32,000 nt of DNA from Deinococcus radiodurans R1 = ATCC 13939 = DSM 20539 (GCF_000008565.1 NC_001263.1:511213-543212), one strand, 5' to 3'. Shown: positions 7,291 through 24,548, counted from the stretch's first letter. The notes: generated by a model from the sequence alone, not told the origin. Numbers and translations: made by a program.

Positions 7291-8621
7291 GCCCTCGCCC
7301 GCTTTGACCCTGGGGCAGCGCTGGGGGGCAGCTCGCCCGCCTCACCCTCAGCGCTGCCCGCCTCAGCCTGGGCGAGCCGTGCCCGCACCGTTACCCGCTT
7401 ACGCCCCTGGGGTTCAGGCTCAGGGGCCGGGGCCGCCGCTGGGGTCAGCGGGTCATAGGTCAGCGAGGCCCGCTCACTTTCGTACACGTGCCGGTACGTG
7501 TCCCGCGTGAAACTGGGGGCCGCGTGCCCCAGCTCAGCCGAGAGCACCTCGACGGGCACCCCCGCCGCCGCCTGAACGCTCGCCCAGGTGTGCCGCAGTT
7601 TGTGAGGAGTCAGCACCGGCACGCCCACCGCCTGACAGAGCCGCGCCATAGGCCGCCGCAAATTGTCAGGCCGGTACGGGGTGCCCGCCCGCGTCACGAA
7701 CACATACCCGGTGCTCTGGTACTCGCGCCCGTTATGCCTTAGCCGCGCCCCCGCCTCGCGCTCAGCCTGGGCGCGGGCGTCGAGCAGCAACCGGGCCGCG
7801 TCACCGGTCACGGTCAGCGAGCGGCGGCCCCGTTCGGTTTTCGGGGTGTCCTCATAGACTCGCCCGCCGCTGACTGACCGCGTGCGCTCGATGTGTACCA
7901 CCGCCGCGAGCGTGCCCCCCTCAGCGCTGCCCCGCATGGTCACGTCTGCCCAGGTCAGCCCCAGGGCCTCGCCTGGGCGTAGACCGGTCGCCAGCATGAA
8001 GGCCAGAGGCCAGCCCCAGCGGTCAGCGCGGGCCGCCGCGTAAAACCGGGCCGCCTCATCTGGGGTGAACGCCTTGACCCGCGCGGCCCCGCGCTCGACA
8101 TACACGGGGCGAGCACGGGCGGCGGGGTTCACCGTCACCACCCCGTCAGTCAGGCCCAGCAAATAGGCCGCGTTCAGCAGGTTGTGAGTTTGCCGCCGCA
8201 CACTGTCACCCTGCCCCGCCTCGCGCTGGGCGTCATAAAACGCCCTGAGCCGCTGGGGGGTCACGCCCTGGGCCTTGAGCTGCCCCAGGCTGGGGGAGAT
8301 GTTGCGCCGCAGTAAGGCGCGGTAATTCTCGACGGTGCGCCCCTTGAGGCTGGGGGCGCGGTGCTCGATGTACGCGCTTACAAGCTGCTCGACGGTCACG
8401 CGCTCGCGGGGGGGCAGGGTGTCACGCTCAGCGGCCCTCAGCGCCTCGCGCACCGCCTCGCGTGCCGCCGTCATGTTGCGGGCCGTGCCGGTCACGTGCC
8501 GCCGCTCGCCCGCTGGGGTGGTGGTCATGACCCGCCAGCGCACCCGCCCCGCTGGGGTTTTCGTATAGCTGCCCTCGCCCTGCCCGCGCTTGACCCGCCG
8601 CCCCTCTGCCCCGTCTGCCAT
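7287..8621 (-). CDS. int: tyrosine recombinase / phage-type integrase
   Basis: 444 aa. SAM-like N-domain (VEQLVSAYIEHRAPSLKGRTVENYRALLR). Catalytic residues in context: ATGLRPGEALGLTWADV (Arg), HKLRHTWAS (HxxR) and LGHAAPSFTRDTYRHV (His and Tyr). Adjacent to tRNA/attL. Confidence 0.93.
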   Translation of the reverse strand: MADGAEGRRVKRGQGEGSYTKTPAGRVRWRVMTTTPAGERRHVTGTARNMTAAREAVREALRAAERDTLPPRERVTVEQLVSAYIEHRAPSLKGRTVENYRALLRRNISPSLGQLKAQGVTPQRLRAFYDAQREAGQGDSVRRQTHNLLNAAYLLGLTDGVVTVNPAARARPVYVERGAARVKAFTPDEAARFYAAARADRWGWPLAFMLATGLRPGEALGLTWADVTMRGSAEGGTLAAVVHIERTRSVSGGRVYEDTPKTERGRRSLTVTGDAARLLLDARAQAEREAGARLRHNGREYQSTGYVFVTRAGTPYRPDNLRRPMARLCQAVGVPVLTPHKLRHTWASVQAAAGVPVEVLSAELGHAAPSFTRDTYRHVYESERASLTYDPLTPAAAPAPEPEPQGRKRVTVRARLAQAEAGSAEGEAGELPPSAAPGSKRARA

Positions 8622-8690
8622 GCCCTCAGCGTACCCCCGCCCCCTGAGCCGTAACAGAACCGGGCAGCGCTGGGGGGCGCCCGGTTCCTG

Positions 8691-8956
8691 GGGGAGTAGG
8701 GGTAGGGTTCTAGGGGGTTTTAGGGGGGTAAATCCCTATAAGCATTTTTTAGACTATCTATCTATCTATATTTGATGTGCCAGAGGGCCTCTAGCGCTGC
8801 TACGGGGTAAGAGTAAAGTACGTATACACTCTAGGGCTCTCCAAAACCCCTAAAACCTCTGGGCTACTCCGAACACCGCCCAGCACGGGAAAAACAGTAG
8901 AGGTTATGTGCTGGGCTACTCTGGGCGCCTACCCCCTAAAACCTCTGGGCTACTCC
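8691..8956. repeat. iteron-like cluster A flanking the most AT-rich tract of the element
   Basis: Perfect 24-bp direct repeat CCCCTAAAACCTCTGGGCTACTCC at 8847-8870 and 8933-8956. An extra CTGGGCTACTC at 8911-8921. An inverted degenerate copy at 8691-8728 (GGGGAGTAGGGGTAGGGTTCTAGGGGGTTTTAGGGGGG). An AT-rich segment at 8729-8830 includes the (TATC)n tract AGACTATCTATCTATCTATATTTGATG. Confidence 0.75.
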
Positions 8957-9912
8957 TACCCCCAGCGCTGCCCCAGCCTGGGCACCGGGGGCGCCCCAGC
9001 CCTGCCCCCGCGTCACCCGCTGACGTGCTGGGCGAGCCGGTCAAATGACGAAAAATGACGATGTTTTGAACGTTCAAACGGGCCGCCGCTCTCTTTTTTC
9101 TGTGACAGAACACTTAGCCCCCGTCGCTGGGGTTTTCGCCGGTTCTGGGGAAAACGAAAACGCCGCGCCCAGACGGTGAAAACCTGGGGCAAACGTGACA
9201 ACTTGGACAGCTAAAAAAGAGAGGAAAGCACCCCGCCCAGGTGCTCGACGAACACCGCCGCGAGGCCCTGGGGGTGAAAGTTTGAAACACCGCGCCCAGA
9301 CAGTAAAACCCCCAGCGGCACCCCTTCAAACTTTCCGATTTTTTCAGCGGTTTTCGTGCCCCTACCCGTGCCCCGCCCAGGGCGCCAGGTCTAACGCTCG
9401 CCCCCTACCCCGCGAGCCGCCGAGGGTTGTTTCACCGTCATAAAGTTCAGGGCGTAAAACCCCCGCCGCGAGGCCCTGACAACGAAAAAATAAAAACACC
9501 GCCCAGCACGGCGAAAACCGCCCAGCAGAACCGTGCATAATTTCGGGATTCTTCGGGGTTTTCGTCGAGCACCTGGGGGCACGCCCTACACCTGACCGCC
9601 CGGTTAATTTTCCTATTTTCGGAGAGGGTAGCGCCTACAGGGGGCAGCGCTCAGCGAGCCGCGCCCAGACGGTAAAAAACGGGATAGGCCGCGTCCTGGG
9701 AACCTCAGAAAACCTCATCCACTGAGCACGCTACAAAGTGCCACGCGCCCAGGTGCCGGGCGAAAAATCCCCCGCCAATAGACCGGGGGGGGATACATAC
9801 TATGGATACCCTTTAACCCCTACCTAGACGGTAAAAACCCGTACCGGCCCGCGCTCTAAAACCTGACAAAACCTGACATTCTGGACACTTAAGACGGTTC
9901 TAAGTGCCCAGG

Positions 9913-9942
9913 CAAAAACCCCCCGCCGCTGAGGGCGAGGGG
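9913..9942 (-). terminator. intrinsic terminator ending the repressor / small-ORF transcript
   Basis: Minus-strand RNA reads CCCCUCGCC-cucagc-GGCGGGGGG, a 9-bp stem with one G-U pair, followed by UUUUUG. It lies about 25 nt past the stop at 9967. Confidence 0.6.
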
Positions 9943-9966
9943 CTGGGCGTGTAGCTGGGGCGAGGG

Positions 9967-10110
9967 CTAGCGCTGCCCGTACCCCTGCCAGATGAACACC
10001 GCCGCAGTAAAGGCCACCGCCCAGGCGGGCCGCTCTGAGCCGTCGAGCGCGAGAAACAGGGCGAGGGCCGCGAGCGCTACGCCTAGCCAAAACACGCGGG
10101 GGTTTTTCAT
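9967..10110 (-). CDS. 47-aa two-TM hydrophobic peptide, translationally coupled to the repressor
   Basis: Not in the ORF track. My translation is MKNPRVFWLGVALAALALFLALDGSERPAWAVAFTAAVFIWQGYGQR. Its ATG (10110-10108) overlaps the repressor TGA (10109-10107) as ATGA. High GC3, and a terminator follows. Confidence 0.45.
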   Translation of the reverse strand: MKNPRVFWLGVALAALALFLALDGSERPAWAVAFTAAVFIWQGYGQR

Positions 10111-10493
10111 CCTGCCCCCCCAGCGCTGCCCGGTTCATCTGCCCCAGGCTCAGCCGGTGCCGCTGGGCTGGGGGTCGAGCTGCCCGCCGCGCCCAGGGCC
10201 TCGCGTACCGCCGCCGTTATGCGAGCGGTGAGCGCGTCGAGTTCCTGGGGTGAGCTGGGGACCGTGACCGGCTGGGCGGTGCCGGTGTGCTCGACGGGCA
10301 CCGCTGTAAGCGTCAGGCCCAGGGCGTCAAGCATGGCGGCCCAGAGTGGGGGCACGGTGCCGCCGCCCTCTGACCCGTTCAGGGCGCGAGTAATGGAAGT
10401 AGGGCTAACCCCGGTAGCGCGTGCGAGGTCGGCGCGGCTCATCTTTTTTTCGTGTAGGCGGGCGTTAATGACCGCCCTTACCGCGTCATTCAT
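10107..10493 (-). CDS. XRE/cI-like HTH transcriptional repressor
   Basis: MNDAVRAVINARLHEKKMSRADLARATGVSPTSITRALNG is a classic XRE helix-turn-helix. It is divergent from the plus-strand operon. Start ATG 10493 (track start 10523 is also possible). The C-terminal tail is low-complexity. Confidence 0.8.
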   Translation of the reverse strand: MNDAVRAVINARLHEKKMSRADLARATGVSPTSITRALNGSEGGGTVPPLWAAMLDALGLTLTAVPVEHTGTAQPVTVPSSPQELDALTARITAAVREALGAAGSSTPSPAAPAEPGADEPGSAGGAG

Positions 10494-10535
10494 GGCTAGA
10501 ACCTTATCATCTCGCGTATACATATACCTTAGAGG

Positions 10536-10567
10536 TTGACAGTATTTACGGGATATGTCAATATTGT
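10536..10567 (+). promoter_or_regulatory. candidate rightward promoter with overlapping operator
   Basis: -35 TTGACA at 10536-10541. A -10-like CAATAT/AATATT follows 17-18 nt downstream. TTGACA-N13-TGTCAA is an inverted hexamer pair (10536-10560). The site lies in the 260-bp gap between the repressor and the first plus-strand gene. Confidence 0.45.
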
Positions 10568-10753
10568 TTCAGCAGTTGAGCGAGCCTCGAACAGAACCGA
10601 TACGCCCGCCGCCTGACTCCCCCGCGAGGTCACACCCTGGAAAACCCGCCCGCCCCGCGTCCCTGAGCCAAAAAAAATGAGTAGAGGCCGCCTCTGTCGC
10701 CAAACAAGAAAACGGCCCCCACACTCGCCCCCCCTTTGCCAGAGGTAAGCACC

Positions 10754-11203
10754 GTGAAAGATACCGCCCGAAACACCCCCGCCCCCGCGCTCGCCCCTGG
10801 GCGCTACGCCGTCACCGCCGGTTACACCTCTCAGGTGTGGGACGTGACCGCCCAGGGCGTCACCCGTACCACCGCCCAGAGCGGCACCTACGCCCCCTCG
10901 CCCCTCGCGCCCCTGACTCACGCTGAGGCGGCCCAGGTGCTCGCCCAGGCCGCCGCGTACCTGGGCCGCCCCGCTGCTCAGCCGCTCGCGCCCCAGCCGG
11001 TGAGCACCCCCAGCGGTGCCCCGGTAGGTAAGGCAACGGGCCGCGCTCTACACGTCGAGCTGTCCCGGCTGGGCTACCGCGAGCACTACACCGCCGCCGC
11101 TGACGCGCTGGGCCGCCCGGTGCCCTCGCTCGCGGCTCTGACCGCCGCTGAGGTCAAAACGGTGTACGCCTACGCCTACGGCTCGCTGGGCATGACCGCC
11201 TGA
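10754..11203 (+). CDS. hypothetical protein (first gene of the plus-strand operon)
   Basis: GTG at 10754 sits 7 nt after GAGGT. High GC3. Ala/Pro-rich 149 aa. No family recognised. Confidence 0.6.
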   Translation: MKDTARNTPAPALAPGRYAVTAGYTSQVWDVTAQGVTRTTAQSGTYAPSPLAPLTHAEAAQVLAQAAAYLGRPAAQPLAPQPVSTPSGAPVGKATGRALHVELSRLGYREHYTAAADALGRPVPSLAALTAAEVKTVYAYAYGSLGMTA

Positions 11204-11258
11204 CCCGCTCAGGGGGGGGGCAGAACGCGCCCCCCCCCTCGCCCCAGAGGGGGACGCC

Positions 11259-11531
11259 ATGACCACGAAAAAAACCGGCACCAAAACCAAAGCCGCCCCA
11301 GCTCGCAAAACCGCGAGCACGAAAACCGCCCCAGCTCGCAAAACTGCGAGCACGAAAACCGCCGCGAGCAGCAACACCGCCCCCGCCCCCCAGCCCCAGC
11401 ACGCCCCCAGCGGCTCGCGTGCCCCGCTGATTCTGGGCCTCGCCCTCGCGGTGCTGGGGTTTATCACCCTCACCCCGGCTGACGTGCGAGCGAGCGTAGA
11501 CGCGGCCCTGAGCGGCCCCGTTGCCCGGTGA
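11259..11531 (+). CDS. small membrane protein with a Lys/Thr-rich tandem-repeat N-terminus
   Basis: ATG follows GAGGGGGA. The N-terminus reads KTKAAPARKTASTKTAPARKTASTKTAAS and is followed by one TM helix (LILGLALAVLGFITL). The DNA carries a tandem repeat of about 33 bp (about 11296-11362). Confidence 0.6.
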   Translation: MTTKKTGTKTKAAPARKTASTKTAPARKTASTKTAASSNTAPAPQPQHAPSGSRAPLILGLALAVLGFITLTPADVRASVDAALSGPVAR

Positions 11532-11538
11532 GGCCCGT

Positions 11539-11799
11539 ATGCCAGAGCTGACCGCCTACACCGTCACCGCGCCCGGTGTGAAGTCCTACACCACCCGCGC
11601 CCCCTCGCCCGCGCTCGCGGTGCTGCCCGCCGCCCGCGCCCTCTATGGTCGCCGCGCCCGGTACGTCATCACCGCCCAGGGGCAGCCCGTCAGCGGCGGC
11701 CCGTTTGTGTTCGCCCTGGGCGTCGAGGGCAACCCCGCCCGCCTGGGCGTGACCGTCAGCGAGGCCCCCAGCCGCCCCCCCAGCGAGGCGAGCGCGTGA
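11539..11799 (+). CDS. hypothetical protein
   Basis: ATG at 11539 follows GGTGAGG. 86 aa with high GC3. Its stop overlaps the next start (GTGA). Confidence 0.6.
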   Translation: MPELTAYTVTAPGVKSYTTRAPSPALAVLPAARALYGRRARYVITAQGQPVSGGPFVFALGVEGNPARLGVTVSEAPSRPPSEASA

Positions 11800-12035
11800 G
11801 CGCCTACCGCCTGGGGCACGGCTCAGAACTGACTGACGCCCAGGCCGCCCAGTTGCTCGCCCGCACCGCCCAGGGCGAGGCCCTGAACTGGGCACCGGTC
11901 AAAACCGGGCACCGCTGGGCGCTCGCGCACCTTGCCACCCTGACCGCCGCTCAGCTCGACGAACACCGCGAGCGCGTGAGCCGGTGCGCCCAGGTGCTCG
12001 ACGGGCTGCCCGTGCCCGCTGCCCTCACCGCCTGA
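11796..12035 (+). CDS. hypothetical protein
   Basis: GTGA-coupled start. 79 aa. No family recognised. Confidence 0.6.
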   Translation: MSAYRLGHGSELTDAQAAQLLARTAQGEALNWAPVKTGHRWALAHLATLTAAQLDEHRERVSRCAQVLDGLPVPAALTA

Positions 12036-12097
12036 ACCGCTCGACGTGGGGCCGCCCCAGCGCTGCCCCAGTTCTCAAAACTTGTGAGGTTTTCGAC

Positions 12098-12871
12098 ATG
12101 ACCAAACCGCATTACACCGCCGCCGTGACTGACCGCGAGGCCCCCGCGCCCTGGGGCGAGTGCCAGGGGTGCGGGGCCGCCGCTGCCCTGCCCGCCTCGA
12201 TGCTGCCCGGCAGAACCTTCAATTACTGCCCCGCGTGCACCGCCCTTGAGCTGCTCAGGGCCGCCGCTACTCAGGCCCTCTCTGACATGCTCGCCCCGCA
12301 CCTGGGGGCCTGGGGCAACTTCTGGGCCGCGTCTGGGCTGAGCCTGGATGATTTGCAGGGCATCACGGGGCAACTGAGCGCGAGCTGGGCGGATGAGGAA
12401 TACTCGACGCGCTACCAGACCGCCGCGATTTACCGCGCGATGAGGGCGCACCCCGCGCCCCTGAACGTCGAGCGGGCCGCCCCTGACCGCCGCGAGGTGA
12501 ACGCGCTGACCCTGCCCCGCGTCACCGCCGCATACCGCTATGACCGCGCCGCGCCCGCTGCCCAGGGGGGCGGCCCTGAGCGCGGCTGGGCGTTTACGCT
12601 CACCTACCCTGACGGGTCTACCGATGAGGGCGTGACCCTCCCCCCAGGGCGTGACGTGCTGCTCACGTACCCCAGCGGCCCCCAGGGTGACGCGGTGCTC
12701 TACTACACCGGCATACACGGCTCGACGGCTGACCGCCGCCCCATCTCTCGCGGTGACGTGCCGCTCTACGTGCCCGCCCAGTTCGTCAAATACGCCCGCG
12801 CCTCGCTGGGGTACTGGGGCGAGGCCCAGGCCCCTACCGCCCAGGCCGCCGCCGCTGAGGGTGCCCAGTGA
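12098..12871 (+). CDS. hypothetical protein with an N-terminal CxxC...CxxC zinc-ribbon-like motif
   Basis: ATG at 12098 lies 8 nt after GTGAGGT. The N-terminus reads WGECQGCGAAAALPASMLPGRTFNYCPACTALE. 257 aa. The track start 11984 would add an Arg-rich leader crossing the previous gene. Confidence 0.65.
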   Translation: MTKPHYTAAVTDREAPAPWGECQGCGAAAALPASMLPGRTFNYCPACTALELLRAAATQALSDMLAPHLGAWGNFWAASGLSLDDLQGITGQLSASWADEEYSTRYQTAAIYRAMRAHPAPLNVERAAPDRREVNALTLPRVTAAYRYDRAAPAAQGGGPERGWAFTLTYPDGSTDEGVTLPPGRDVLLTYPSGPQGDAVLYYTGIHGSTADRRPISRGDVPLYVPAQFVKYARASLGYWGEAQAPTAQAAAAEGAQ

Positions 12872-13263
12872 CCGGGGCCGGGACACCGGGCCGCCGCTCG
12901 CCCCGCGCCCTTATCCCTGGGGCGGTCAGTCTCGCGGCGGTTCAGGTGGTGCCCGCCTCGCTGACCGCTGACGGGCGGCCCGCGCTCGCCCTCGCCTGCT
13001 ACACCACCCGGCACCGCGTGACGCTCGCGCACCTCCCCAGCGGGGCCGCGTGGTCACTCGCCCGCCCCCCAGCGCTGCCAAACGAACGCGACGAGCGCGA
13101 GGGGCTGACGCTCGCCCGCCTGGGCGGTGCCCGTCTGACCCTTGAGCATGAGGGCCGCCGCGCCGTGCTCGACGTGCCCGCCGTGCGTTTGCTCCGCGAG
13201 CTGTGCGAGGCCCTGGGCACCTATGACCGCTCACCCGTCGAGGGCCTGGGGCGGCCCGCATGA
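12868..13263 (+). CDS. hypothetical protein (carries the RLTL motif)
   Basis: GTGA-coupled start. 131 aa. Contains GGARLTLEHEGRRAVLDVPAV. Confidence 0.6.
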   Translation: MTGAGTPGRRSPRALIPGAVSLAAVQVVPASLTADGRPALALACYTTRHRVTLAHLPSGAAWSLARPPALPNERDEREGLTLARLGGARLTLEHEGRRAVLDVPAVRLLRELCEALGTYDRSPVEGLGRPA

Positions 13264-13763
13264 CCCCCGGCGCTGACCCGGTGCTGTGTAACCTCGCCCC
13301 CGCCCAGGTGCTCGCCCGGATGCTCGACGTTTTGGCGGGCGAGCTGGGCGGCCCCGGCGCCCGGCACACCAGCGAGGCCCGCGAGCACGTGCGGGCGGCC
13401 CTCGCTGCCCCTGAACTGTCGCCCGCGTACTTTGACGCGCTCGCCCAGGCTGAGGGCGCCCTGACGCGGGCCGTCAGCGAGCGGCCCCCCTCTGGGCACC
13501 TGAGCGCCCGCGAGGTGCTGGGCGTCACCCGCACCCCCAGCGGTGCCCGCCTCACCCTCGCTGACGGTGAGCGCGTCGAGCTGCCCGCCACCTCGCCTTA
13601 TCACCTGACCCCGACGGCACCGGCCCGCCTCTCGCGGCTCGACGTGCCCGCGCTCTACACCCTGCCCGCCGCGCTCGCTCGCCCCGCCGCCCTCGCGCTG
13701 GGGTTTGACCCTCAGCAGCTCGCGGCCCTGCTCGACACCCCAGAGGTGCCCCGCCATGACTGA
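13260..13763 (+). CDS. hypothetical protein (carries the RLTL motif)
   Basis: ATGA-coupled start. 167 aa. Contains SGARLTLADGERVELPA. Confidence 0.6.
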   Translation: MTPGADPVLCNLAPAQVLARMLDVLAGELGGPGARHTSEAREHVRAALAAPELSPAYFDALAQAEGALTRAVSERPPSGHLSAREVLGVTRTPSGARLTLADGERVELPATSPYHLTPTAPARLSRLDVPALYTLPAALARPAALALGFDPQQLAALLDTPEVPRHD

Positions 13764-14340
13764 ACCGAACACCGCCGCCCGTACCCCCGCCGCCCTCGCT
13801 GAGCACCTGGGGCTGAGCGTGCCCCAGCTCGCCCAGCAACTCGCCCGCGTGACTCAAACCGAGGGCCTGAGCGCCCAGGGCCTCACCGTGTATGAGGGGG
13901 CCGCCTCGCTGGGCCTGAGCGCCGCTGAGGTGCTGGGCGTGCTCGCCATGTGCCCCGGCACCGCTGAGCGTGAGGCGGCCCCGCTGCTCGACTTTCCCGC
14001 GTCCCTGAACGGCGCAAACATGCCCGCCGCGCTGTGTGACGCGCTGAGCGGAGTGTATGCGGTGCTGAGTGACGCCCCGCCCCAGGGGGTGAGCCGCGAG
14101 CACCTGGGCCGCGCCCTCGCTGAAGTCACGGGGGCCGCCCAGGTGCTCGCCCAGCTCGACGGCACCCCCGCCGCCCTCAGCGCTGCCCAGGTCATGACCG
14201 CCCGCGCTCTCGCGGCTGGGGCCGGGGCTGAGTTGTACCCGGCTGACACCCTCGCCCAGTTCAGGGCAGCGGGCGAGCGCCGCGCCGCTGAGCACCGGCA
14301 CCCCGTGACCGGTCAGCCGCTCGCGGGGGGCAGGTTCTGA
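13756..14340 (+). CDS. hypothetical protein
   Basis: ATG at 13756 overlaps the previous stop by 8 nt (ATGACTGA). 194 aa, beginning MTEPNTAARTPAALAEHLGLSVPQLAQQLARV (possibly HTH-like). Confidence 0.6.
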   Translation: MTEPNTAARTPAALAEHLGLSVPQLAQQLARVTQTEGLSAQGLTVYEGAASLGLSAAEVLGVLAMCPGTAEREAAPLLDFPASLNGANMPAALCDALSGVYAVLSDAPPQGVSREHLGRALAEVTGAAQVLAQLDGTPAALSAAQVMTARALAAGAGAELYPADTLAQFRAAGERRAAEHRHPVTGQPLAGGRF

Positions 14341-14738
14341 TGCTGCCCCTAGAACTGCTCAGCGCCCAGCCTCACGGGGCAGGGGTGCGGCTGACCCTCG
14401 CGGGGCGAGCTGAGGCGCTCGACGTGGTACGCGGTCAGGTTCAGGTGAGGGCCTGGGGCCGCGTGCCCGGTCAGCCCAGCGTGCTTGACGTTCATACCCT
14501 CTGGGGGCGCCAGCCGGTCAGGGTGCCCGCCGCGCTGCTCGCCCAGGTGTGCGGGGCGCTGGGCCTCTCGCCCCGGTTGCCCTGCCCCGCGTGCGAGGGT
14601 GAGGGCGTGACTGACACCGCCGCCCCAGGGGTGCCGCCCCGCTGCCCCGCATGTCTGGGGCGCGGCACCCTGACCCCCGCTCAGCTCGCGCGGCATGAGG
14701 CGGCCCAGGCTGAGCAGCTCGCGGGCGGTGTCTCATGA
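14340..14738 (+). CDS. hypothetical protein with two DnaJ-type CxxCxGxG zinc-finger motifs
   Basis: TGATG junction with the previous gene. Contains CPACEGEG and CPACLGRG 22 residues apart. The N-terminus carries GAGVRLTLAGRAEALDVV. Confidence 0.62.
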   Translation: MLPLELLSAQPHGAGVRLTLAGRAEALDVVRGQVQVRAWGRVPGQPSVLDVHTLWGRQPVRVPAALLAQVCGALGLSPRLPCPACEGEGVTDTAAPGVPPRCPACLGRGTLTPAQLARHEAAQAEQLAGGVS

Positions 14739-15694: not shown

Positions 15695-15746
15695 TGAGCT
15701 TTCGTGTGTTTTCGCCTCTCTCGCCCTCGCTGGGCAGCGCTGGGGG

Positions 15747-17035: not shown

Positions 17036-17704
17036 CGTGACCGCCCCGCCCCAGGGGTGCCAGGTCTACCCCCCAGCGCTGCCCAGGCTCAGGCAAAGGC
17101 GAAAAAATACCGGGCAAGTTTTCGCCACTTGCCGCCCAGCACCGGGCAAAACCGCGCCGCGTGCGAGCAAAAACGGGGCAGAACTGGGCGCCGTGTAAGC
17201 AAAAACGCCCCCCAGCGCTGCCCAAACTGGGAAAAACCGGGTAAATGTTGCCCCCCGGCGCACACTGAGCGCGTCACACCGAACAGCCCAGAACCGCCCG
17301 CCCAGCGCGTGAAAACAGGGGCGAGAGGGTGTGAGCTGGGGTTATGTAGGCGGATTCTCCTGAGCCAAATTGAGCCGCTCGACGGCTCGCCCGCCGTCCG
17401 GTGTATTACCAGCCCGCCCCCAGAAAACACACCGCCCCCGCGTGCCCGCCTATCACTTTCGTTTAAAACGCGAGTGCGCCCAGCACGGCGAAAACCCCGC
17501 GAGCGGCTGGGCGGTTTTGCTGTTTCAAACGCGAAAACCGCCGCGAGCGGTGAAACATTCTGGGGGCATATCGGCGGCCCCGCCCAAATGGTCAGGCGGG
17601 GGCCGTTTTGCTGACCATTTGCTCAGCGCCCAGCACATGCCCGCGAGGTGCTGGGCGGTCATTTTCCTACCGTCAGGCAAATGACCGCGAGCCGCGCCCA
17701 GCGA

Positions 17705-17730: not shown

Positions 17731-17781
17731 CAGTGTGAGCAGCGGTGAGCAGAACTGAGCAGAAAACGGGGCAGCGCTGGG

Positions 17782-18774
17782 CTACTCGCTGGGGTGCTGC
17801 TCGCCCAGCACCCCCCGCAGCGGCCCCGGTGTGTCTCTGCCCTCGCGCTCGCGGCGGGCCGCCTCTAGGTCATGTAAGGCACGGTAGAGCACGCGCTCTA
17901 GGTGCGCTTCATACCGCGTGACTTTCTGGGCCTCAGCCTCACCGGGCAGCGCTGCCAGGGCGAGCGCGTCAGCCTCAGCGCTGAGGGCCTCGCGCTGGGC
18001 GGCCCTGATTTTTGCCGCCTCCCCGCGCTCAAACTCGGCAGACTCCCCCAGCATCTCGCCCGCCTCATCTCCCCAGAACTCGCGGTAAAACGCGAGCAGC
18101 CCCGGCAGCTCGCCCGGTTCATACGTCCATTTGTGCCCCTCGACGCTCGCCGCCTCGCCCCGCCTGGGGGCGCGGCCCAGCATGGCCCGCACCATGTCAC
18201 CCGCCCGCGCTGGGGGGTCAGCGTCGAGCAGCTCACCCGCGAGGGCCGCGCCCAGGTGCGCCGCGTCACGCTCGCCCAGCCCCTCAGCGCTGCCCCCACC
18301 TGCCCAGCGGCTCAGGTGTGCCGCCGCCCGGTCATGCTGGGCCGCCTTATGTTCGGGCAGCCCAGGCACCGCCGCGAGCAGATGGGGCGAGGTGCCCGCC
18401 GCGTCAGCGAGCCGCGCCCGTGCCCGCTTGACATTCCCGGTGCCCCGGTATCCCTCCCCCTCAGCAATAGCGGCCCGTGTCGAGCGCTGGGCCTCGCGTA
18501 TCTGGGCCGCCTCATACCGTGCCACGCGGTCAAGTCGCCACAGGGCGAGGGCCGCCCGGTCTGCTAGGCGCTGCTCTAAGTAACTCGCGGCCCCGGTGCT
18601 CGCCCGTATCTGCTCGACGTGCTGGGCGTATGCCTCGCGCTCGCCCTCGCTGACGTGCTCGCTCAGAATCCCGTGCCGCTGGGCGTTTGCGCCCCTGGGG
18701 TCACGCTCGACGGTCTGACCCTGGGGCATGTCGAGCACCCCCGCCGCGTTTGTTTCGTAATTTTCGCCGTTCAC
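17782..18774 (-). CDS. hypothetical protein (Ala/Glu/Arg-rich, helical)
   Basis: 330 aa. GTGA-coupled to the upstream gene. No family recognised. Confidence 0.6.
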   Translation of the reverse strand: MNGENYETNAAGVLDMPQGQTVERDPRGANAQRHGILSEHVSEGEREAYAQHVEQIRASTGAASYLEQRLADRAALALWRLDRVARYEAAQIREAQRSTRAAIAEGEGYRGTGNVKRARARLADAAGTSPHLLAAVPGLPEHKAAQHDRAAAHLSRWAGGGSAEGLGERDAAHLGAALAGELLDADPPARAGDMVRAMLGRAPRRGEAASVEGHKWTYEPGELPGLLAFYREFWGDEAGEMLGESAEFERGEAAKIRAAQREALSAEADALALAALPGEAEAQKVTRYEAHLERVLYRALHDLEAARREREGRDTPGPLRGVLGEQHPSE

Positions 18775-18989: not shown

Positions 18990-19246
18990 CGCTCACCCTC
19001 TGGGGGCAGCGCTGCCGCGTCGAGCACCTGGGCGAGCACCGCCCAGCCGTCAGGGGTCAGGGTGCCCGCGCCGGTCACGTACCCCGCCGCGTGTAGGGCG
19101 TCGAGCTGGGCCGCGCTGGGGGGGCGGTGCTCGACGGTCACCGCGAGGGCCTGAACCTGGGCCGCGAGGGTGCCCCAGCCGCTCGCGCTGAGGGCCTGGG
19201 CGTATGCCCTGAGCAGCGCCGGCGCGTATTCGTGCCGCGTGCTCAC
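18986..19246 (-). CDS. hypothetical small protein (possible paralogue of the next gene)
   Basis: 86 aa with a coupled start. It shares a G-x-LTP-x-G-x-A-x-L segment with 19243-19506. Confidence 0.55.
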   Translation of the reverse strand: MSTRHEYAPALLRAYAQALSASGWGTLAAQVQALAVTVEHRPPSAAQLDALHAAGYVTGAGTLTPDGWAVLAQVLDAAALPPEGER

Positions 19247-19506
19247 CTCTCACCCCCAGCGCTGCCCAGCCCTAACCGCTCGACGTGGGCACGTACCGCC
19301 GCGAGGCCCTGGGCGGTGAGCTGCCCGCCTGGGGTGAGCACCCCCAGCCCCTCAGCCGTCGAGCGGGCCGCGTTTTTGAGTCTGCCCAGCCTGGGGGCCT
19401 CGCGGCTGAGCAGCTCGCCCAGCCCCGGCACCGCCTGACCCTCTACCGTGCCCGCGTACACGTCGAGCGCGGCCCAGGTCACGGCGTTCATTTTCGCCCG
19501 CGTCAT
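19243..19506 (-). CDS. hypothetical small protein
   Basis: 87 aa. ATGA-coupled start. It ends in GSAGGER, encoded by a 14-mer copy. Confidence 0.55.
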   Translation of the reverse strand: MTRAKMNAVTWAALDVYAGTVEGQAVPGLGELLSREAPRLGRLKNAARSTAEGLGVLTPGGQLTAQGLAAVRAHVERLGLGSAGGER

Positions 19507-19979
19507 GACTCGCCCCGCTCAGCCTCAGCGAGTTTCAGCCCAGGGCGCAGCGCCCAGCGGGGGGCCACCCCGTGACACATACACCGGGCCGCCGCGTGCA
19601 TGACGGGCAGCGGCGGGGCATCAGGCCCCGGCCCGCCCGGTGCCCAGGGGGTATGAACCGCCCAGCCTAACGAACACTCCCCCATGAGGCGGCCCCAGTC
19701 TGGGGCGGCAGTGAAGTGTCTACAGGTGCCGCACCGCCCGCGCTCAGCCGCCCGCGCTGCCATATCGGGCACGGGGCGAGTCTGGGGGCGCGGCGGGGCA
19801 GCGGGCGGCCCCTGAACCGGGGGCGAGCTGGGCACCGGGGGGCGAGGTGCGGGGCGGGGGGGCAGCGAGGGCACCGGGGCCGGCGCGGGCACCTGAACCG
19901 GTTCAGGCGGGGCAGCGCTGGGGGTAGTTTGCCCGCGTGCCGCCCTGAGCTGGGCGAGAAAATCTGAGGAAAACGTCAC
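19503..19979 (-). CDS. hypothetical Pro-rich / Cys-rich protein
   Basis: 158 aa. A long proline-rich linker is followed by CGTCRHF...C...CMCH. The start overlaps the primase stop. Confidence 0.55.
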   Translation of the reverse strand: MTFSSDFLAQLRAARGQTTPSAAPPEPVQVPAPAPVPSLPPRPAPRPPVPSSPPVQGPPAAPPRPQTRPVPDMAARAAERGRCGTCRHFTAAPDWGRLMGECSLGWAVHTPWAPGGPGPDAPPLPVMHAAARCMCHGVAPRWALRPGLKLAEAERGES

Positions 19980-22651
19980 GCGCTCACCCCCTCGCCCTCT
20001 GCCCCGTCGAGCGCCGCGAGCGCGTCAGGGTGCACCCTGAGCGTTTTCACGGGCCGCCCGCCCGCCTTACCGCCTGGGGGCGTGCTGACTTCTACCCTCG
20101 CGGCCCCGCACTCGCTGAGCACTTTTAGAGCCGCGTCGAGCCGGGGGCCGGTCATACCCGCCTTACCCTCAGCGAGCACCCGGCGCACGTCTGCCACCTT
20201 GTGACCATCACACACGCGGCCCCGCTCGACGTACCCCAGCACCGTCTGAGCGTCGAGCACGTCAGCCCGCCGCCCCTCGCGCCACAGTTTGCGGGCGTGC
20301 GCCGCGAGGTACTCACACCACACCGCCGCGAGCGCCGCCGCCTCAGCGCCAACACGGGCGGGCTGAGGGTGAGCGCTGCCCAGCGTCACCACGTCGAGCG
20401 CGTGAAAAATCAGGGCGAGCCGTGCAAATGTTGCCGGTTGCTTAGAGATATGCGCCCGGTATGCCTCGCCCCGGCTGAGGTCTTTTAGGGCCTGGGCGTG
20501 CTGACGTTCCCAGGCGTCGTAAACCGCCTGAGCCTCTGGGGTGTAGAGCAGCGGGGCCGGGCCGCCGCTGGGGTACACGCTGCCCAGACTCTCAGGGGTC
20601 AAGGTGCCCAGCCCGTCGAGCACCGCCGCCGCCGCCTCGCGGAGCGCCTCGCTGACCGGCTCGCGCTGGGCGGCTTGGTCAAACTCTGGGAAGATGTCAG
20701 GCCAGATAAACACCTGAAACCGTTGTAAGAGGCCGTCACCGGCCCCGCGCTGGGCGTCGAGCACGTCAGCGAGCGGCCCCGGTTGGATACCGCCCAGCAC
20801 CCCAGCGCACATCAGCGGGATATGTACCACCCCGCGAGAGACGCGCTTGAGCGTAAAAGACTCGGTGCCGTTTGCCGCCTCCAAATAAAACGCCCGTTCA
20901 GTTTCACGCCCTGAGCGCTCAAACCCCGCGAGCCACCCGGTCAGCTCATCACGTACCACCGTCACACCCTGGGGGCTGTCCCTCAGAATCTCGCCCAGCG
21001 TCTCGGCGTTTGGGTCGTTGACCACGTACCACCGGGCAGTAAGGGCCGCCTCAGCCTCGCGCAGCGCCTCGCGTGCCTCTGTCAGCTCATCATCTGAGGG
21101 CATCTCGACGGGTTTACCGCCCCCCTTAAATGCCCGTTTCACGCGGGCTTCTAGCGCCTCTAGCTGGGCCGCCGCCTTACCTCTCGCGGTTTCCAGTTCT
21201 GAGCGCTGGGCGTCGAGCCGGTCAAACTCTGCTTTCTGGGCGCGAGTCAGCACCGCCGCCCCTCTATTCACGGCGTAGGTTTTTTTCAGCCCAGGCCGCC
21301 CGCATACCGCGCCCCAGAGGTTCGCGGGCACCGCTGGGGTGTTGGGGGCGTTTTTCAGTTTCACCGCCGCGCTGAGCATCCCCCCAGCACCGACGAGCAC
21401 CGGCCCCGCGAGCACCTCTAAGGGCAGCCCCGCCGCCCGCGCCTCAGCCTGTATCCACTGGGCGAGCGGGGCGGGCAGCAGCTCGACGGGCAGCGGCGGC
21501 ACCGGTTCAGTCACCGGGGGCAGAGGGGCAACCTCGCCCCAGGCCACCGGGGGCAGGTCAGCGGCGGCGGGGCGGGGGGCGCCACCCCCAGCGCTGCCCC
21601 GCTCAGGCTCAGGCAACCCCAGCACGCGGGCGGCCCGCTTGACCAACTCGCGCCGCTGGGCAGGGTCAGCCGTGTACACGTCCACACCCTCAGCGAGCAG
21701 CGCCCAGACTCCGAACGCGTCACGGGGCAGCCCATCCCCCAGGGGGTCGGCAGCGTGCCAGCTCATCACCACCTGAGCGCCTCGCGGGGTGCGCTCAGGG
21801 CGCAACCTCACGCCCGCCTGACCGCTCGACGAGCCGGGGTAAAGCCAGGGGCCATGAGGCCCGCCCTTATACCCGTGCTCGCCCAGCACCTCAGCGAGTG
21901 AGCGCGAGGCGTTAAACGTGTCTATGACGCTCGCCCCCTCGCCCTCACCGCCGCGCGAGCTGCCACCGCCCAGCCGGTTCAGGTCACGCTCAGCCGGGGC
22001 GGGCAGCTCAGCCGGTGCCCAGGGGCACGCGGCCCGCATGACCGGCAACAGGGCCGCCCAGCGCTGCCACAGGCTCAGCAGTTCGGGGGGCAGTTCGGGC
22101 AGCTCGCCCAGCGAGGCGGGCACCGGCCCCGTCCATTCATAGGGCCGCCCGGTGTCAGGGTGCACGCTGGGCGGCATCACGTCCTGCACCCCAGCCCCGC
22201 CGCGTAGCTCAAAAATGGTCAGCGGGGCGGGCCGCCCGCCGGGGCCTTTCTTGCCGCTGGGGTCAGGCCAGCTCAGGGCGTGCCGGTTCAGGCTCAGCCC
22301 GTCAGGGACGCGGAAAATAGGCTTTTCACCCTTCTTACCCCTGACCCGGTAGGGGTTAGAGGCGAGCACCGCCGCGAGGTCTACGCCCACCGCCGCGAGT
22401 GCGAGCGCCGCGCCGTCGTGGTCTATGTCGAGCGCGGCGGTTTGACTCTCAGAGTGCAGCAACCCCACACCGGCCCCAGGGTGCGCCGTGAGGTACTCGC
22501 GGGCAGCGCTGGGGGTGGTAATCCACTGGGCGGGGTCAGAATCCCATCCCTTCGCGCGGGGGCCTTTCGTGCCCTGGGGCACCGGCACCAACGCGGCCCA
22601 GCTCGCCAGGGCCTCAGCCTGGGCGATACGGTCAGCAAAGGGCGCGGTCAT
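19976..22651 (-). CDS. replication protein: bifunctional primase-polymerase (Prim-Pol) N-domain fused to a DUF3987-type helicase-like domain
   Basis: 891 aa. The N-terminus has LVPVPQGTKGPRAKGW, ALDIDHD (DxD) and PPSVHPDTGRPYEW, typical of Prim-Pol. The C-terminal half (FYLEAANGTESFTLKRVSRG...GGIQPGPL) resembles DUF3987 proteins of phage and plasmid primases. Confidence 0.8.
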   Translation of the reverse strand: MTAPFADRIAQAEALASWAALVPVPQGTKGPRAKGWDSDPAQWITTPSAAREYLTAHPGAGVGLLHSESQTAALDIDHDGAALALAAVGVDLAAVLASNPYRVRGKKGEKPIFRVPDGLSLNRHALSWPDPSGKKGPGGRPAPLTIFELRGGAGVQDVMPPSVHPDTGRPYEWTGPVPASLGELPELPPELLSLWQRWAALLPVMRAACPWAPAELPAPAERDLNRLGGGSSRGGEGEGASVIDTFNASRSLAEVLGEHGYKGGPHGPWLYPGSSSGQAGVRLRPERTPRGAQVVMSWHAADPLGDGLPRDAFGVWALLAEGVDVYTADPAQRRELVKRAARVLGLPEPERGSAGGGAPRPAAADLPPVAWGEVAPLPPVTEPVPPLPVELLPAPLAQWIQAEARAAGLPLEVLAGPVLVGAGGMLSAAVKLKNAPNTPAVPANLWGAVCGRPGLKKTYAVNRGAAVLTRAQKAEFDRLDAQRSELETARGKAAAQLEALEARVKRAFKGGGKPVEMPSDDELTEAREALREAEAALTARWYVVNDPNAETLGEILRDSPQGVTVVRDELTGWLAGFERSGRETERAFYLEAANGTESFTLKRVSRGVVHIPLMCAGVLGGIQPGPLADVLDAQRGAGDGLLQRFQVFIWPDIFPEFDQAAQREPVSEALREAAAAVLDGLGTLTPESLGSVYPSGGPAPLLYTPEAQAVYDAWERQHAQALKDLSRGEAYRAHISKQPATFARLALIFHALDVVTLGSAHPQPARVGAEAAALAAVWCEYLAAHARKLWREGRRADVLDAQTVLGYVERGRVCDGHKVADVRRVLAEGKAGMTGPRLDAALKVLSECGAARVEVSTPPGGKAGGRPVKTLRVHPDALAALDGAEGEGVSA

Positions 22652-22869
22652 CGAGCACCCCCAGCGCTGCCCAGGTGCGCCCCGCTCGCCTGTAGCTCGC
22701 TGAGCCTGTCGAGCAGCCGCCCCGCGATTTTTTCCAGCTCGCCCAGGGCGTCATACTCGCCCCGTGCCCGCATCTCTGGGGCCTCGCGCTCTATGTACTC
22801 GCTCAGGCTCGCGTGCTGCTCGCATAGCTCGCGGTACAGGACGCGGGGCGAGGGGGTGAACGCGAGCAC
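22648..22869 (-). CDS. hypothetical small protein upstream of the primase (start uncertain)
   Basis: ATGA-coupled to the primase start. The plausible coding part is VLAFTPSPRVLYRELCEQHASLSEYIEREAPEMRARGEYDALGELEKIAGRLLDRLSELQASGAHLGSAGGAR. GTG at 22869 or 22893. The rest of the 218-aa track ORF runs through repeat cluster B. Confidence 0.4.
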   Translation of the reverse strand: MLAFTPSPRVLYRELCEQHASLSEYIEREAPEMRARGEYDALGELEKIAGRLLDRLSELQASGAHLGSAGGAR

Positions 22870-23150: not shown

Positions 23151-23264
23151 GGGGCGCCTTAACACATACGAAAATGCACGCGGCCCCGCTCGCGGTGCTC
23201 TCCGGTAGACTCTGGGCAAGCCCGCCAGCCTGCCCCCGCCCCGTGCCTGCCATATGGGGCGGTT

Positions 23265-23561
23265 TCATTTTTGCCCCTGAGCCGTCGAGCGCTCGGCCCG
23301 CCACGCGTCGAGCTGGGCGCGGTGAATGCGGTACACGGGCCGTGCGGGGGTGCCGTAGTTTTCAGCGAGCAGGCGGCCCGCTTTAATTTCGTTTCTGATG
23401 AGGTCTTGCCCGACGCGCAACAGGGCCGCCGTCTCTACCACGTCGAGCACGGGCAGGGTTGCGAGCTGCTCAGGGGTCAGGGTGGTACGTTTGCGCCCGT
23501 TCGTCACTCTGGGCGAGCGGGTCAGGTTTTCAGCATGTGTGCTGGGGTTAGGGGTGGTCAT
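23265..23561 (-). CDS. excisionase-family / MerR-like HTH DNA-binding protein (candidate Xis)
   Basis: 98 aa. LDVVETAALLRVGQDLIRNEIKAGRL...YRIHRAQLDAWR matches the HTH_17/excisionase pattern. GAGGG lies 8 nt before the ATG. It sits at the opposite end of the element from int. Confidence 0.7.
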   Translation of the reverse strand: MTTPNPSTHAENLTRSPRVTNGRKRTTLTPEQLATLPVLDVVETAALLRVGQDLIRNEIKAGRLLAENYGTPARPVYRIHRAQLDAWRAERSTAQGQK

Positions 23562-23717
23562 GTAAAGCCCTCGCGGTACACCCCAGCCGCGCCCCGCGTC
23601 GAGCGCAGGGGGCTAGGGGTAGAGCTGGGCGGGCCTGACTCGCCGCGTACCGTTTACGGCGTAGGGGTGTCAGGTTGCCCGGTGAGCGCTTCCCCGGTCA
23701 GGGGCAGCGCTGCCAGC

Positions 23718-24548
23718 TCAGGCGAGGGCAGGGGGCGCGAGGGGTGCGGCTGGGGGTATGGCCCGCGAGTAGAGCGGGCGAGGGGCGCGACGAACTGGGG
23801 GCCGCCGCTTAGGTTTACGGGGAGCCATGCGCCGCAGTACCCGTAGCAGCACGCGTACCGTTCGCCAGAATTGCCGCCGCTCGTTACGGTGCTCGCGCCC
23901 TTTGGGAAGTTGGAGAACGAACGAGTAGAGGGACGCCCTGAGTTGCGCTCCTAACGGTTCAAACCCATGCATGAGTTGCTTTACAACTGCCTGCGGGCCG
24001 CCTGGGAGATGCTTTGCAAGACTTAGAAGGATGTTGCCCCAGTGGTAGCCGTACTGGGCCGCTGTGGTTAGCTTTTCAGTCAGATAAGCGGGCTGAGGCG
24101 CGGCTATGTAAGTGCGGGGCAGCCCCAGACTCATTTTCTCTACCGGCGCTGCCCAGGCTGCAAACCCCGCGAGCTGCTCAGCCCCGTTTACCGGCTCCCC
24201 CCCCAGCGCTGCCCCCGCCTGGGCGTCAGGCTTAGCAGCGGGCCGCCCAGGGGCGAGCATGGCCCAGAGGCCCCAGCGGTACACCCCGGCCCCGCGCATG
24301 ACGGCACGGCGGTAGTGGCGAGCAGTCCAGGGGTCAGGGTGAACGCTCAGCGAACCGTCAGGGGTAACGTTGCCCAGGGTGGGTACGTCATGTGCCATAA
24401 GCTCAACCTCGACGCGGCGAGGTTCGCCCAGCCAACCGCCCGTGACGATTTGCACGGGCAGATAAACACAGCCGCCGTTAACCCTTATGACATACGCGCC
24501 CCAGACGTTTACACGTTTAGGGGTGGGCAGGGTCACGGGGGCGGACAT
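23718..24548 (-). CDS. hypothetical protein with a basic C-terminal tail
   Basis: 276 aa. First gene inside attR on the minus strand. The C-terminus reads RRMAPRKPKRRPPVRRAPRP. No family recognised. Confidence 0.55.
   Translation of the reverse strand: MSAPVTLPTPKRVNVWGAYVIRVNGGCVYLPVQIVTGGWLGEPRRVEVELMAHDVPTLGNVTPDGSLSVHPDPWTARHYRRAVMRGAGVYRWGLWAMLAPGRPAAKPDAQAGAALGGEPVNGAEQLAGFAAWAAPVEKMSLGLPRTYIAAPQPAYLTEKLTTAAQYGYHWGNILLSLAKHLPGGPQAVVKQLMHGFEPLGAQLRASLYSFVLQLPKGREHRNERRQFWRTVRVLLRVLRRMAPRKPKRRPPVRRAPRPLYSRAIPPAAPLAPPALA

Follow-up and report, generated by a model that had tools for sequence, protein, structure and literature searches.

The chromosome of Deinococcus radiodurans R1 carries, integrated at a tRNA-Arg(TCT) gene, an element of ~17.6 kb whose DNA is studded with copies of a short, C-rich motif. 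This motif is real, specific to the element, selected at the level of the DNA and unreported in the literature searched; a search on the motif and the genes of the element returned nothing relevant except expression data for one gene, DR_0530. The stretch of chromosome analyzed, referred to here as the window, comprises 32,000 nucleotides (GCF_000008565.1 NC_001263.1:511213-543212), and all positions are counted from its first letter. Among the functional readings weighed below, the one that we tentatively place first, as a possibility that falls short of being probable, is that the copies form an array of binding sites, selected for their density, for an element-encoded protein with an element-wide role.

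A dense motif confined to one element

The motif core, CAGCGCTG, occurs 29 times in the window, compared with 2.33 times in dinucleotide shuffles (maximum of 7), and CCCCAGCGCTGCCC with at most one mismatch occurs 27 times, compared with 0.23 expected. Twenty-eight of the 29 cores lie within the element, at 7316-24211, while the lone outside core, at 25675, lacks the C/G flanks. Fifteen copies are exact 14-mers (10 on the plus strand and 5 on the minus strand), and copies are found throughout the 17 kb, on average 625 bp apart. An initial annotation of the window had described a dense motif confined to the element and a single flankless core outside it; both statements are borne out, and the copy positions that it gave were right to within 1-4 nt.

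Because the vocabulary of the element is very unusual, Markov models of order 1-5 were trained on the element with all motif copies masked. These models predict at most 0.1 14-mers where 15 are seen, and at most 1.5 occurrences of AGCGCTGCCC where 27 are seen. A further 144 kb of DNA from Deinococcus, made up of pooled host flanks (44 kb) and two plasmid stretches (100 kb together), contains no AGCGCTGCCC. Furthermore, non-coding DNA has 2.24 copies per kb, more than the 1.43 per kb of coding DNA. The motif is not a composition artifact. The possibility that copies are pieces of a larger repeat was rejected, as their likeness fades beyond ~20 nt. A hairpin-bearing unit of the repetitive extragenic palindrome or miniature inverted-repeat transposable element type was likewise set aside, because likeness fades over the same distance and copies arise through point substitution rather than insertion.

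The copies are listed below, with the strand that carries the C-rich form; the genes named are described later, and L001 is one of the related loci introduced in the next section.

7313..7326, minus strand: exact copy in the last 13 codons of the integrase gene, sense
7346..7359, plus strand: one-mismatch copy (CCTC...), forming an inverted pair with 7313
7919..7932, plus strand: one-mismatch copy within the integrase gene
8662..8675, minus strand: exact non-coding copy, 41 nt upstream of the integrase start
8960..8973, plus strand: exact non-coding copy, perfect 15-nt inverted partner of 8662
10118..10131, plus strand: exact copy in the last codons of the XRE-family gene
12055..12068, plus strand: exact intergenic copy; in L001, the corresponding junction is duplicated around an extra gene
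13067..13080, plus strand: one-mismatch copy in a gene for a 131-aa protein, kept in 7 of 8 alignable relatives via the rare Pro codon CCA
14175..14188, plus strand: one-mismatch coding copy
15268..15281, plus strand: one-mismatch copy in the last codons of the final gene of the rightward operon
15732..15745, minus strand: exact copy, 1 nt past the stop of gene 15747-16118
16243..16256, plus strand: exact copy, 65-78 nt ahead of the stop of gene 16178-17035
16685..16698, no strand: symmetric variant, CCC-core-GGG
17071..17084, plus strand: exact non-coding copy, 36 nt upstream of the start of gene 16178-17035
17210..17223, plus strand: exact non-coding copy
17769..17782, minus strand: one-mismatch copy abutting the stop of the gene for a 330-aa protein, with a terminator-like hairpin downstream of the copy
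17944..17957, no strand: variant GGG-core-CC, kept in 7 of 9 relatives via the rare Ala codon GCA
17973..17986, no strand: core only, with weak flanks; not conserved among relatives
18282..18295, plus strand: one-mismatch copy in the 330-aa gene, where the rare Ala codon GCT is retained
19004..19017, no strand: variant GGG-core-CC near a gene junction
19254..19267, plus strand: exact copy encoding the GSAGG tail of the gene for an 87-aa protein, its G-run ~8 nt upstream of the next start
19910..19923, minus strand: exact copy, 53 nt past the primase stop
21586..21599, plus strand: exact copy within the primase gene
22056..22069, plus strand: two-mismatch copy within the primase gene
22501..22514, minus strand: exact copy within the primase gene
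22659..22672, plus strand: exact copy encoding the GSAGGAR tail of the gene upstream of the primase
23702..23715, no strand: variant GGG-core-CC, 5 nt past the stop of gene 23718-24548
24201..24214, plus strand: exact copy within gene 23718-24548

The motif in related elements

Searches with the primase of the element led to 12 related loci, from D. sp. VB343, D. fonticola, D. arenicola, D. frigens and metagenomes, which are cited here by their locus labels. In 9 of these 12 elements (primase identity 59-91%, GC content 58-70%), the commonest 10-mer of all is AGCGCTGCCC or CAGCGCTGCC, and the motif is not continued into the host flanks of the relatives. When both forms are counted, AGCGC[TG]GCC occurs at 1.5-2.5 per kb in every motif-bearing element. 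No motif was found in the distant relative L226, nor in L227, the primase of which is 66% identical and which shares several other genes with the window element.

One lineage carries a variant of the motif. In L228, AGCGCGGCC occurs 21 times (16 of them as AGCGCGGCCC) and the T form only 7 times, as observed in its region 8617-21541; L220 is mixed, with 21 T-type and 11 G-type copies. The G-type variant is without the palindrome, which shows that the T form can dispense with its 8-bp symmetry. The unit that is conserved is asymmetric, consisting of a C-rich 5' flank followed by AGCGC[T/G]GCCC, with the flanking C-runs on one strand. Such a lineage variant as that of L228 would be expected if a binding factor co-evolves with its sites.

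Selection on the DNA and turnover of sites

Cores of the window are retained in relatives more often than the background of 8-mers, as seen in L001 (14 of 19 versus 32%, p = 2e-4), L221 (6 of 10 versus 19%, p = 0.005) and L223 (5 of 12 versus 10%, p = 0.005). Where the encoded residue is conserved, its codon is identical in 87% of cases under the core versus 65% elsewhere, a difference that is significant in 8 of 9 relatives. The best-kept sites use rare A- or T-ending codons, and adjacent synonymous positions vary; at site 13067, for example, the sequence reads ...CCC CCA GCG CTG CC., with CCA as the rare codon. The motif is kept by selection on DNA, both at synonymous positions and in non-coding DNA. 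The proposal that it is an element-specific signal acting on DNA is thus upheld by the relatives, by synonymous-site conservation and by the background controls.

Individual sites turn over. Across six elements, the primase gene has 12 distinct site positions, with 2-6 present per element, and lost sites are 1-2 substitutions from the core, with no insertions or deletions. Turnover together with constant density implies selection for the number of sites as much as for their position. The idea of a mobile mini-insertion was rejected, since sites come and go through base substitution, with neither insertions nor deletions seen.

Gene ends, reading frames and orientation

In the window, 11 cores lie between 80 nt before and 25 nt after a stop codon, compared with 3.8 expected (p about 0.001). 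Enrichment at gene ends was also found in L220 (p = 0.009) and L223 (within 40 nt, p = 1.5e-4), but not in L221, so that the enrichment first described for the window is seen in three of the four elements tested, that of the window included.

Twenty of the 28 cores are inside genes. Of these 20 coding copies, 14 are read as Ser-Ala (AGC|GCT), 5 as Ala-Leu (GCG CTG) and 1 in the Cys/Trp frame, whereas in the relatives the Ser-Ala and Ala-Leu frames are about equally frequent and the Cys/Trp frame is avoided. The Ser-Ala bias results from codon structure (C at codon position 3, then G at position 1) and from tolerance, rather than from a selected peptide; the unrelated word CTC|GAC likewise centers a CpG palindrome on a codon boundary. 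The Ser-Ala frame stressed in the initial annotation therefore describes most coding copies of the window, but it is not general among relatives and is a consequence rather than a cause. A protein-level PSAA/GSAGG motif was rejected, because copies occur in two frames and in non-coding DNA.

Three unrelated genes (ends at 10107-10131, 19243-19267 and 22648-22672) finish with a motif-encoded LGSAGG-x-x-stop, where x-x is AG, ER or AR. In each case the next start overlaps the stop, the G-run lies ~8 nt upstream of that start, and the junction copy is antisense. The G-run at these junctions may double as a ribosome-binding site.

With respect to transcription, orientation is mixed, as had been noted: 8 copies are sense and 10 antisense in the window, and 23 and 34, respectively, in four elements pooled. 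Each of the five copies located where an operon or gene ends is sense. Successive copies tend to alternate in orientation, with 20 runs in the window versus 14.3 expected (p = 0.008); L229 (p = 0.005) and L232 (p = 0.011) behave likewise, and among the window and 10 relatives, the runs test gives p = 0.005-0.04 in six elements. Adjacent minus-oriented pairs number an estimated ~10 versus ~31 expected over 11 elements. Under strict flank classes, the C-rich form favors the plus strand 85 to 24 in six elements, against a background of about 1.2:1 for CCCn8CCC versus GGGn8GGG; under a half-site definition, the strand bias is ~62% and no single element is significant. The bias of the C-rich form runs with the C-over-G skew of the plus strand, which is itself independent of gene direction; the coding-strand GC skew at third codon positions is -0.18 for plus-strand genes and +0.07 for minus-strand genes (window 7196-24800). 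This strand skew suggests one-directional replication or another process specific to one strand.

The element and its genes

The main features of the element are as follows.

7119..7195, plus strand: tRNA-Arg(TCT), found with ARAGORN and Rfam; its 3' half is the left attachment site (attL) of the element
7287..8621, minus strand: tyrosine integrase AAF10092 (Pfam Phage_integrase, E = 8.6e-18)
8622..10106, no strand: lower-GC non-coding region with its own repeats and motif copies 8662 and 8960, from a repeat search and composition profile
10107..10523, minus strand: XRE-family helix-turn-helix (HTH) protein of 138 aa, candidate repressor (Pfam HTH_3/HTH_31)
10536..10565, plus strand: promoter-like site facing away from the XRE gene into the rightward operon; the inverted repeat TTGACAGTATTTAC/GGGATATGTCAA lies over it, and it has no motif copy
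10736..15289, plus strand: rightward operon of ~10 genes without a family match, its motif copies all on the plus strand (sense)
17782..18774, minus strand: 330-aa all-helical protein, candidate motif partner
19243..19506, minus strand: 87-aa, weakly winged-helix-like protein, candidate binder
19976..22651, minus strand: PrimPol + DUF3987 primase-helicase, DR_0530, AAF10112 (Pfam), the query with which relatives were found
23265..23561, minus strand: HTH_17 (AlpA/excisionase-like) protein (Pfam)
24577..24604, minus strand: promoter-like site of the leftward operon, without a motif copy
24745..24800, plus strand: right attachment site (attR), a direct repeat of the tRNA 3' half seen by alignment and by blastn against L001, which defines the right end of the element

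The proteins of the element are identical to D. radiodurans R1 entries AAF10092 to AAF10112. About 20 of its open reading frames (ORFs) have no match in sequence searches of Pfam, PHROGs, NCBIfam or PDB. Domain and family searches of the ORFs revealed no recognizable capsid, terminase or conjugation gene, and neither a methyltransferase nor a nuclease domain. Translocases, DNA receptors and packaging ATPases were likewise not found in the element, none of its ORFs contains an FtsK/SpoIIIE domain, and the only ATPase found, which bears on the idea of a packaging or partition signal, is the primase-helicase. An Rfam scan identified the tRNA as the only known RNA family. Phage DNA searched at near identity gave tRNA matches only; a protein search of phages and plasmids gave only distant primases (at most 42% identity), and scans of IMG/VR viral contigs, for the primase and for one or two motif copies, gave only distant relatives or single chance matches. 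Three of the relatives, L220, L231 and L232, are stand-alone Logan contigs of 18.9, 15.7 and 14.5 kb, approximately the size of the element, with an integrase at one end.

The 1.4-kb non-coding stretch at 8622-10106 contains a 27-nt unit repeated three times (9158, 9285 and 9654), as well as CTGGGCTACTC and AAAACCCCCGCC, each also present three times; it may be an origin or a regulatory region. The XRE protein has its HTH domain at the N-terminus only (Pfam), and its last codons, GSAGGAG, are encoded by motif copy 10118. The inverted repeat TTGACAGTATTTAC/GGGATATGTCAA, which is not related to the motif, is a probable operator for the XRE protein itself. One transcriptome study found DR_0530 to be up-regulated in recJ-like mutants (log2 fold changes of 2.1 and 3.3), which hints that the element responds to DNA-repair defects.

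Candidate binding proteins

Co-occurrence with the motif singles out the 87-aa and 330-aa proteins as candidate binders. The 330-aa protein is encoded in every motif-rich element and, according to a presence/absence table, is absent from L229, L227 and L226. It has 71 homologues, in Deinococcus only, contains two conserved R-Y-E-A motifs and is predicted to be all-helical in an AlphaFold (AF2) model with a predicted local distance difference test score (pLDDT) of 86. Homologues of the 87-aa protein, the AF2 model of which also has a pLDDT of 86, were found in 8 of 8 T-type relatives compared and in none of the 4 others (the G-type L228, the weak-motif L229, and the motif-less L226 and L227). 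L227, although motif-less, also encodes the primase, HTH_17 and 131-aa proteins. Two further ideas were rejected: that the motif is a primase recognition site, since L227 lacks the motif but has a primase that is 66% identical, and that the XRE repressor is the binder, since the region of its promoter carries another inverted repeat and lacks the motif.

Avoided and recurring words

Apart from the motif, the element is distinguished by the words that it lacks. Together, the 64 six-base palindromes occur 97 times versus 425 expected, or 56 versus 417 without AGCGCT. GCGCGC, CCGCGG, GGGCCC and CGGCCG each occur zero times versus 30-40 expected, and GATC zero times versus 24, whereas in the host flanks GATC occurs 44 times versus 43 expected. 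The hexamers depleted at least 10-fold include many that are non-palindromic (CTGCGC, CGGCCA, GGAGCC, CCACGG and others). The avoidance profile is common to the motif-bearing relatives L001, L220, L221, L223, L224, L228, L230 and L232, and it is weak or absent in L226, L227, L229 and two Deinococcus plasmids. A purge of short words on this scale would rank among the strongest restriction-avoidance signatures to be expected in a small element, and could serve as a read-out of the restriction systems met by mobile DNA in Deinococcus.

Only two palindromes are enriched, namely AGCGCT (41 versus 8.6 expected) and TCGA (77 versus 33 expected, 71 as CTCGAC). Certain codon pairs are almost fixed: Leu-Asp is written CTCGAC in 31 of 36 cases, and Ala-Gln is written GCCCAG in 68 of 81 and never GCGCAG. 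A second recurring word, CGTCGAGC, occurs 47 times in the element (7778-24709) and 4 times in the flanks, with no strand bias, and 36 of its 40 coding copies have a codon boundary in the middle of TCGA (CTC|GAC or GTC|GAG). It is clade-specific: the window, L001, L220, L221 and L231 have many copies, and L223, L224 and L228 have next to none. Where present, CGTCGAGC is maintained at synonymous positions; L223, L224 and L228 keep Leu-Asp there through other Leu codons. Additional words include CTCGCCCAG, present 28 times in one codon phase as Leu-Ala-Gln or Leu-Gly-Glu, and CCCAGGTGCTCG, present 11 times as Ala-Gln-Val-Leu or Glu-His-Leu-Gly. Many of the element proteins without a match share short peptide words of the CTCGCCCAG and CCCAGGTGCTCG types.

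Possible functions of the motif

The motif 5'-(C)CCC-AGCGC[T/G]-GCCC-3' marks a single family of small integrative elements in Deinococcus. Under the binding-site reading, its copies would serve as double-stranded-DNA sites for a sequence-specific protein of the element itself. This protein would read an asymmetric site, as a monomer or two-domain reader would, and would cover the whole element, with a benefit that scales with the number of sites and not with any one position. The likeliest role would be element-wide control or organization, for example the silencing or compaction of the integrated element or its recognition as 'self' on excision and replication. By analogy, the array resembles the dispersed protein-binding sites that mark mobile genomes, and it appears to evolve like count-dependent signals such as uptake sequences, but its behavior matches that of no known system of this type.

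Several points weigh against this reading. No element protein stands out as the binder, and those named above are candidates only: the model of the 330-aa protein has no fold match in PDB or a viral library, with nothing below E = 0.08, and the winged-HTH matches of the 87-aa model in Foldseek have TM scores of about 0.5 but E values above 1. The co-occurrence that singles them out is a correlation over 12 partly sampled loci related by descent, and the G-type locus comes from a 4x long-read assembly. The best motif match has 5 mismatches in 10500-10760 and 6 in 24540-24700, the regions of the two predicted main promoters, and orientation is not tied to transcription, unlike in the best-studied repressor arrays. 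Moreover, turnover at constant density, tolerant frames, placement at gene ends and alternation would fit density signals such as uptake sequences no less well than regulatory operators.

These same properties lend themselves to a second explanation, that the copies are a self-recognition tag for moving DNA, read by a packaging, export or import machine in the manner of the DNA uptake sequences (DUS) and uptake signal sequences (USS), or of the TraB recognition sequences (TRS) and clt locus of Streptomyces. Any fragment of the element of a few hundred bases would then be recognized. We regard this as unlikely, yet deserving of serious weight. A density that stays at ~2 per kb despite turnover, the use of both orientations with alternation above chance, the enrichment at gene ends in tolerant frames and the inverted pairs 7313/7346 and 8662/8960 all accord with it, as does an element that lacks recognizable capsid, terminase and conjugation genes and whose extreme restriction-site avoidance implies frequent entry into new hosts as unprotected DNA; D. 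radiodurans is, in addition, naturally transformable. However, the searches of the element uncovered neither a translocase nor a DNA receptor nor a packaging ATPase, the uptake sequences that are known belong to host genomes and not to mobile elements whereas here the motif is missing from host DNA, strand polarity (62-78%) is weak compared with FtsK-orienting (KOPS) or SpoIIIE recognition (SRS) sequences, and there is no evidence of element transfer. In its most specific form, the element would carry its own uptake- or packaging-type 'self' tag, and an encoded protein would recognize AGCGC[T/G]GCCC and channel fragments into export, import or re-establishment; this version is rather improbable. 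It would provide for spread among Deinococcus species without recognizable virion or conjugation genes, with the restriction-site purge as the other half of the life style, and, if true, it would be the first uptake-sequence-like system belonging to a mobile element rather than to a host. A role in dealing with nucleases or modification is, in our view, quite improbable: the motif could act in the manner of Chi, restraining an exonuclease of the host or the element as it attacks linear DNA that is replicating or entering the cell, or it could be the site at which a DNA-modifying enzyme acts. The 85-to-24 preference of the C-rich form for one strand, in the direction of the C-over-G skew, and the status of AGCGCT as the sole 6-bp palindrome left unpurged speak for such a role, but half-site polarity is only ~62%, and the host flanks lack the motif, which is therefore not a host Chi. 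To our knowledge, D. radiodurans has neither RecBC nor AddAB. As for modification, a target suggested in the initial annotation, the proposal is weakened by the G-type variant, which destroys the AGCGCT palindrome, and by the published R1 methylomes, which contain CCGCGG/YCGCGR only and no AGCGCT, although 5-methylcytosine there would escape both methods; the element also encodes no methyltransferase or nuclease domain that could be found.

The gene-end enrichment has also invited the idea of module-boundary recombination sites, in which short shared junction sequences would promote cassette exchange between related elements. L001 offers a single case, an extra gene of ~125 codons at 19864-20379 (reverse complement 2295-2810) located between the homologues of genes 11796-12035 and 12098-12871 and flanked by a direct repeat of ~40 bp that consists of a stop codon, ACCGCTCGACG and then the motif, and that also holds GCTCGACG. 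In addition, 17 homology-block ends lie near the motif, versus 9 for random positions; once positions are matched for distance to gene ends, however, 15 are expected (p = 0.34), which leaves the idea, first raised for the window, with no independent support. Many copies are deep in genes (2-6 per primase gene) and turn over there, and L221 lacks the gene-end enrichment, so that this explanation has a slim chance of being correct. Shufflon-like inversion sites were rejected separately, as copies are found in essential genes in both orientations. A comparably slim chance attaches to a signal in RNA or single-stranded DNA, whereby opposite copies would pair as 14-bp stems, the G-run would be a ribosome-binding site, or the C-rich form would mark transcript ends. 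Alternation (20 runs versus 14.3 expected), the three LGSAGG-x-x-stop genes with a G-run ~8 nt upstream of an overlapping start, and the sense orientation of all five operon- or gene-end copies would suit it; nonetheless, the overall numbers of sense and antisense copies are similar, both operons as well as the non-coding DNA contain copies, the core alone cannot make a hairpin, and opposite copies pair by construction, such that pairing is not evidence. Finally, it is hardly credible that the motif is a passive by-product, the commonest long word of a vocabulary narrowed by short-word avoidance and fixed codon pairs. That vocabulary is certainly narrow, with a depletion of 10-fold or more affecting 76 of 441 testable hexamers in the element versus 3 of 342 in the host flanks, nearly fixed codon pairs, and other recurring words (CTCGCCCAG, CGTCGAGC and CCCAGGTGCTCG, at 28, 47 and 11 copies). 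Even so, the masked Markov models of order up to 5 fall far short of the 15 14-mers, and the motif is denser in non-coding DNA, is read in two frames and lies in either orientation whereas some other recurring words keep to a single codon phase, persists over elements of 58-70% GC, and is conserved at synonymous sites.

Comparison with known systems

The initial annotation likened the motif to the stoperators of cluster A mycobacteriophages (L5 gp71 type), which comprise 20-36 dispersed, asymmetric sites of ~13-14 bp that the host lacks; their orientation follows transcription, reversal abolishes function, an operator is located at the early promoter, and the sites lie in short intergenic gaps (PMC9283540). 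The motif described here is similarly asymmetric, present in more than 20 copies (27 at no more than one mismatch), absent from the host, associated with gene ends and subject to lineage variation. In contrast to stoperators, its orientation is mixed, neither main promoter has a copy (a different inverted repeat covers the rightward -35/-10), 20 of 28 copies are in genes, though per-kb density is higher in non-coding DNA, and host phylum and element type differ, the element having no tailed-phage genes. The stoperator binder is a monomeric repressor that combines an HTH domain with a stoperator domain, and in the XRE protein the N-terminal HTH is the only domain recognized. The analogy fails on orientation, promoter copy and intergenic placement, and by the available tests the motif is not a stoperator system.

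Other sets of dispersed sites, including the P1 C1 operators, the conserved inverted repeats of phiC31 and the 17-bp repeats of cluster O mycobacteriophages, consist of many copies to which a single phage protein binds or is presumed to bind, and the motif resembles them in the number of copies of one short sequence over a mobile genome. Most of those operators and repeats lie between genes and are linked to promoters or transcript ends, and we know of no report of any of them at ~2 per kb inside genes with rapid turnover. Chi, KOPS/SRS and Streptomyces TRS/clt are words of 5-8 bp, strongly polar and read by RecBCD/AddAB or FtsK-family translocases. The motif is, like them, short, G/C-rich, over-represented and strand-biased, and they act in proportion to their number; it differs in its 10-14 bp unit, its polarity of 62-78% and the lack of any such enzyme encoded in the element, and from Chi, which is enriched in the core genome of its host, also in its absence from host flanks. 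Unlike replication iterons, copies are spread over 17 kb and not clustered at an origin by an initiator gene, and the motif-less L227 keeps a 66%-identical primase.

Uptake sequences (Neisseria DUS and Pasteurellaceae USS) are present in either orientation at a density of ~1-2 per kb; pairs of inverted copies lie at gene ends, and coding copies keep to tolerable frames. They turn over by point mutation under selection for number and are common to related species. The motif shares this density, the two orientations, the tolerated frames, turnover at a kept number, inverted pairs and a sequence common to related species. DUS and USS, however, mark the whole host chromosome and are read by host competence machinery, which favors DNA that bears them through a specific receptor, whereas only the mobile element carries the motif here, with zero AGCGCTGCCC in 44 kb of host flanks and 100 kb of plasmid DNA.

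To the best of our knowledge, dispersed element-specific motif arrays have been described in only a handful of phage groups, and their function is understood in fewer. Because the element resides in the R1 chromosome, binding, silencing, excision and transfer are open to existing genetics. The present array belongs to a different phylum and to an element made up almost entirely of proteins without a family match; it departs from the best-known case in orientation, promoter copy and intergenic position, and its population behavior is that of a count-dependent signal.

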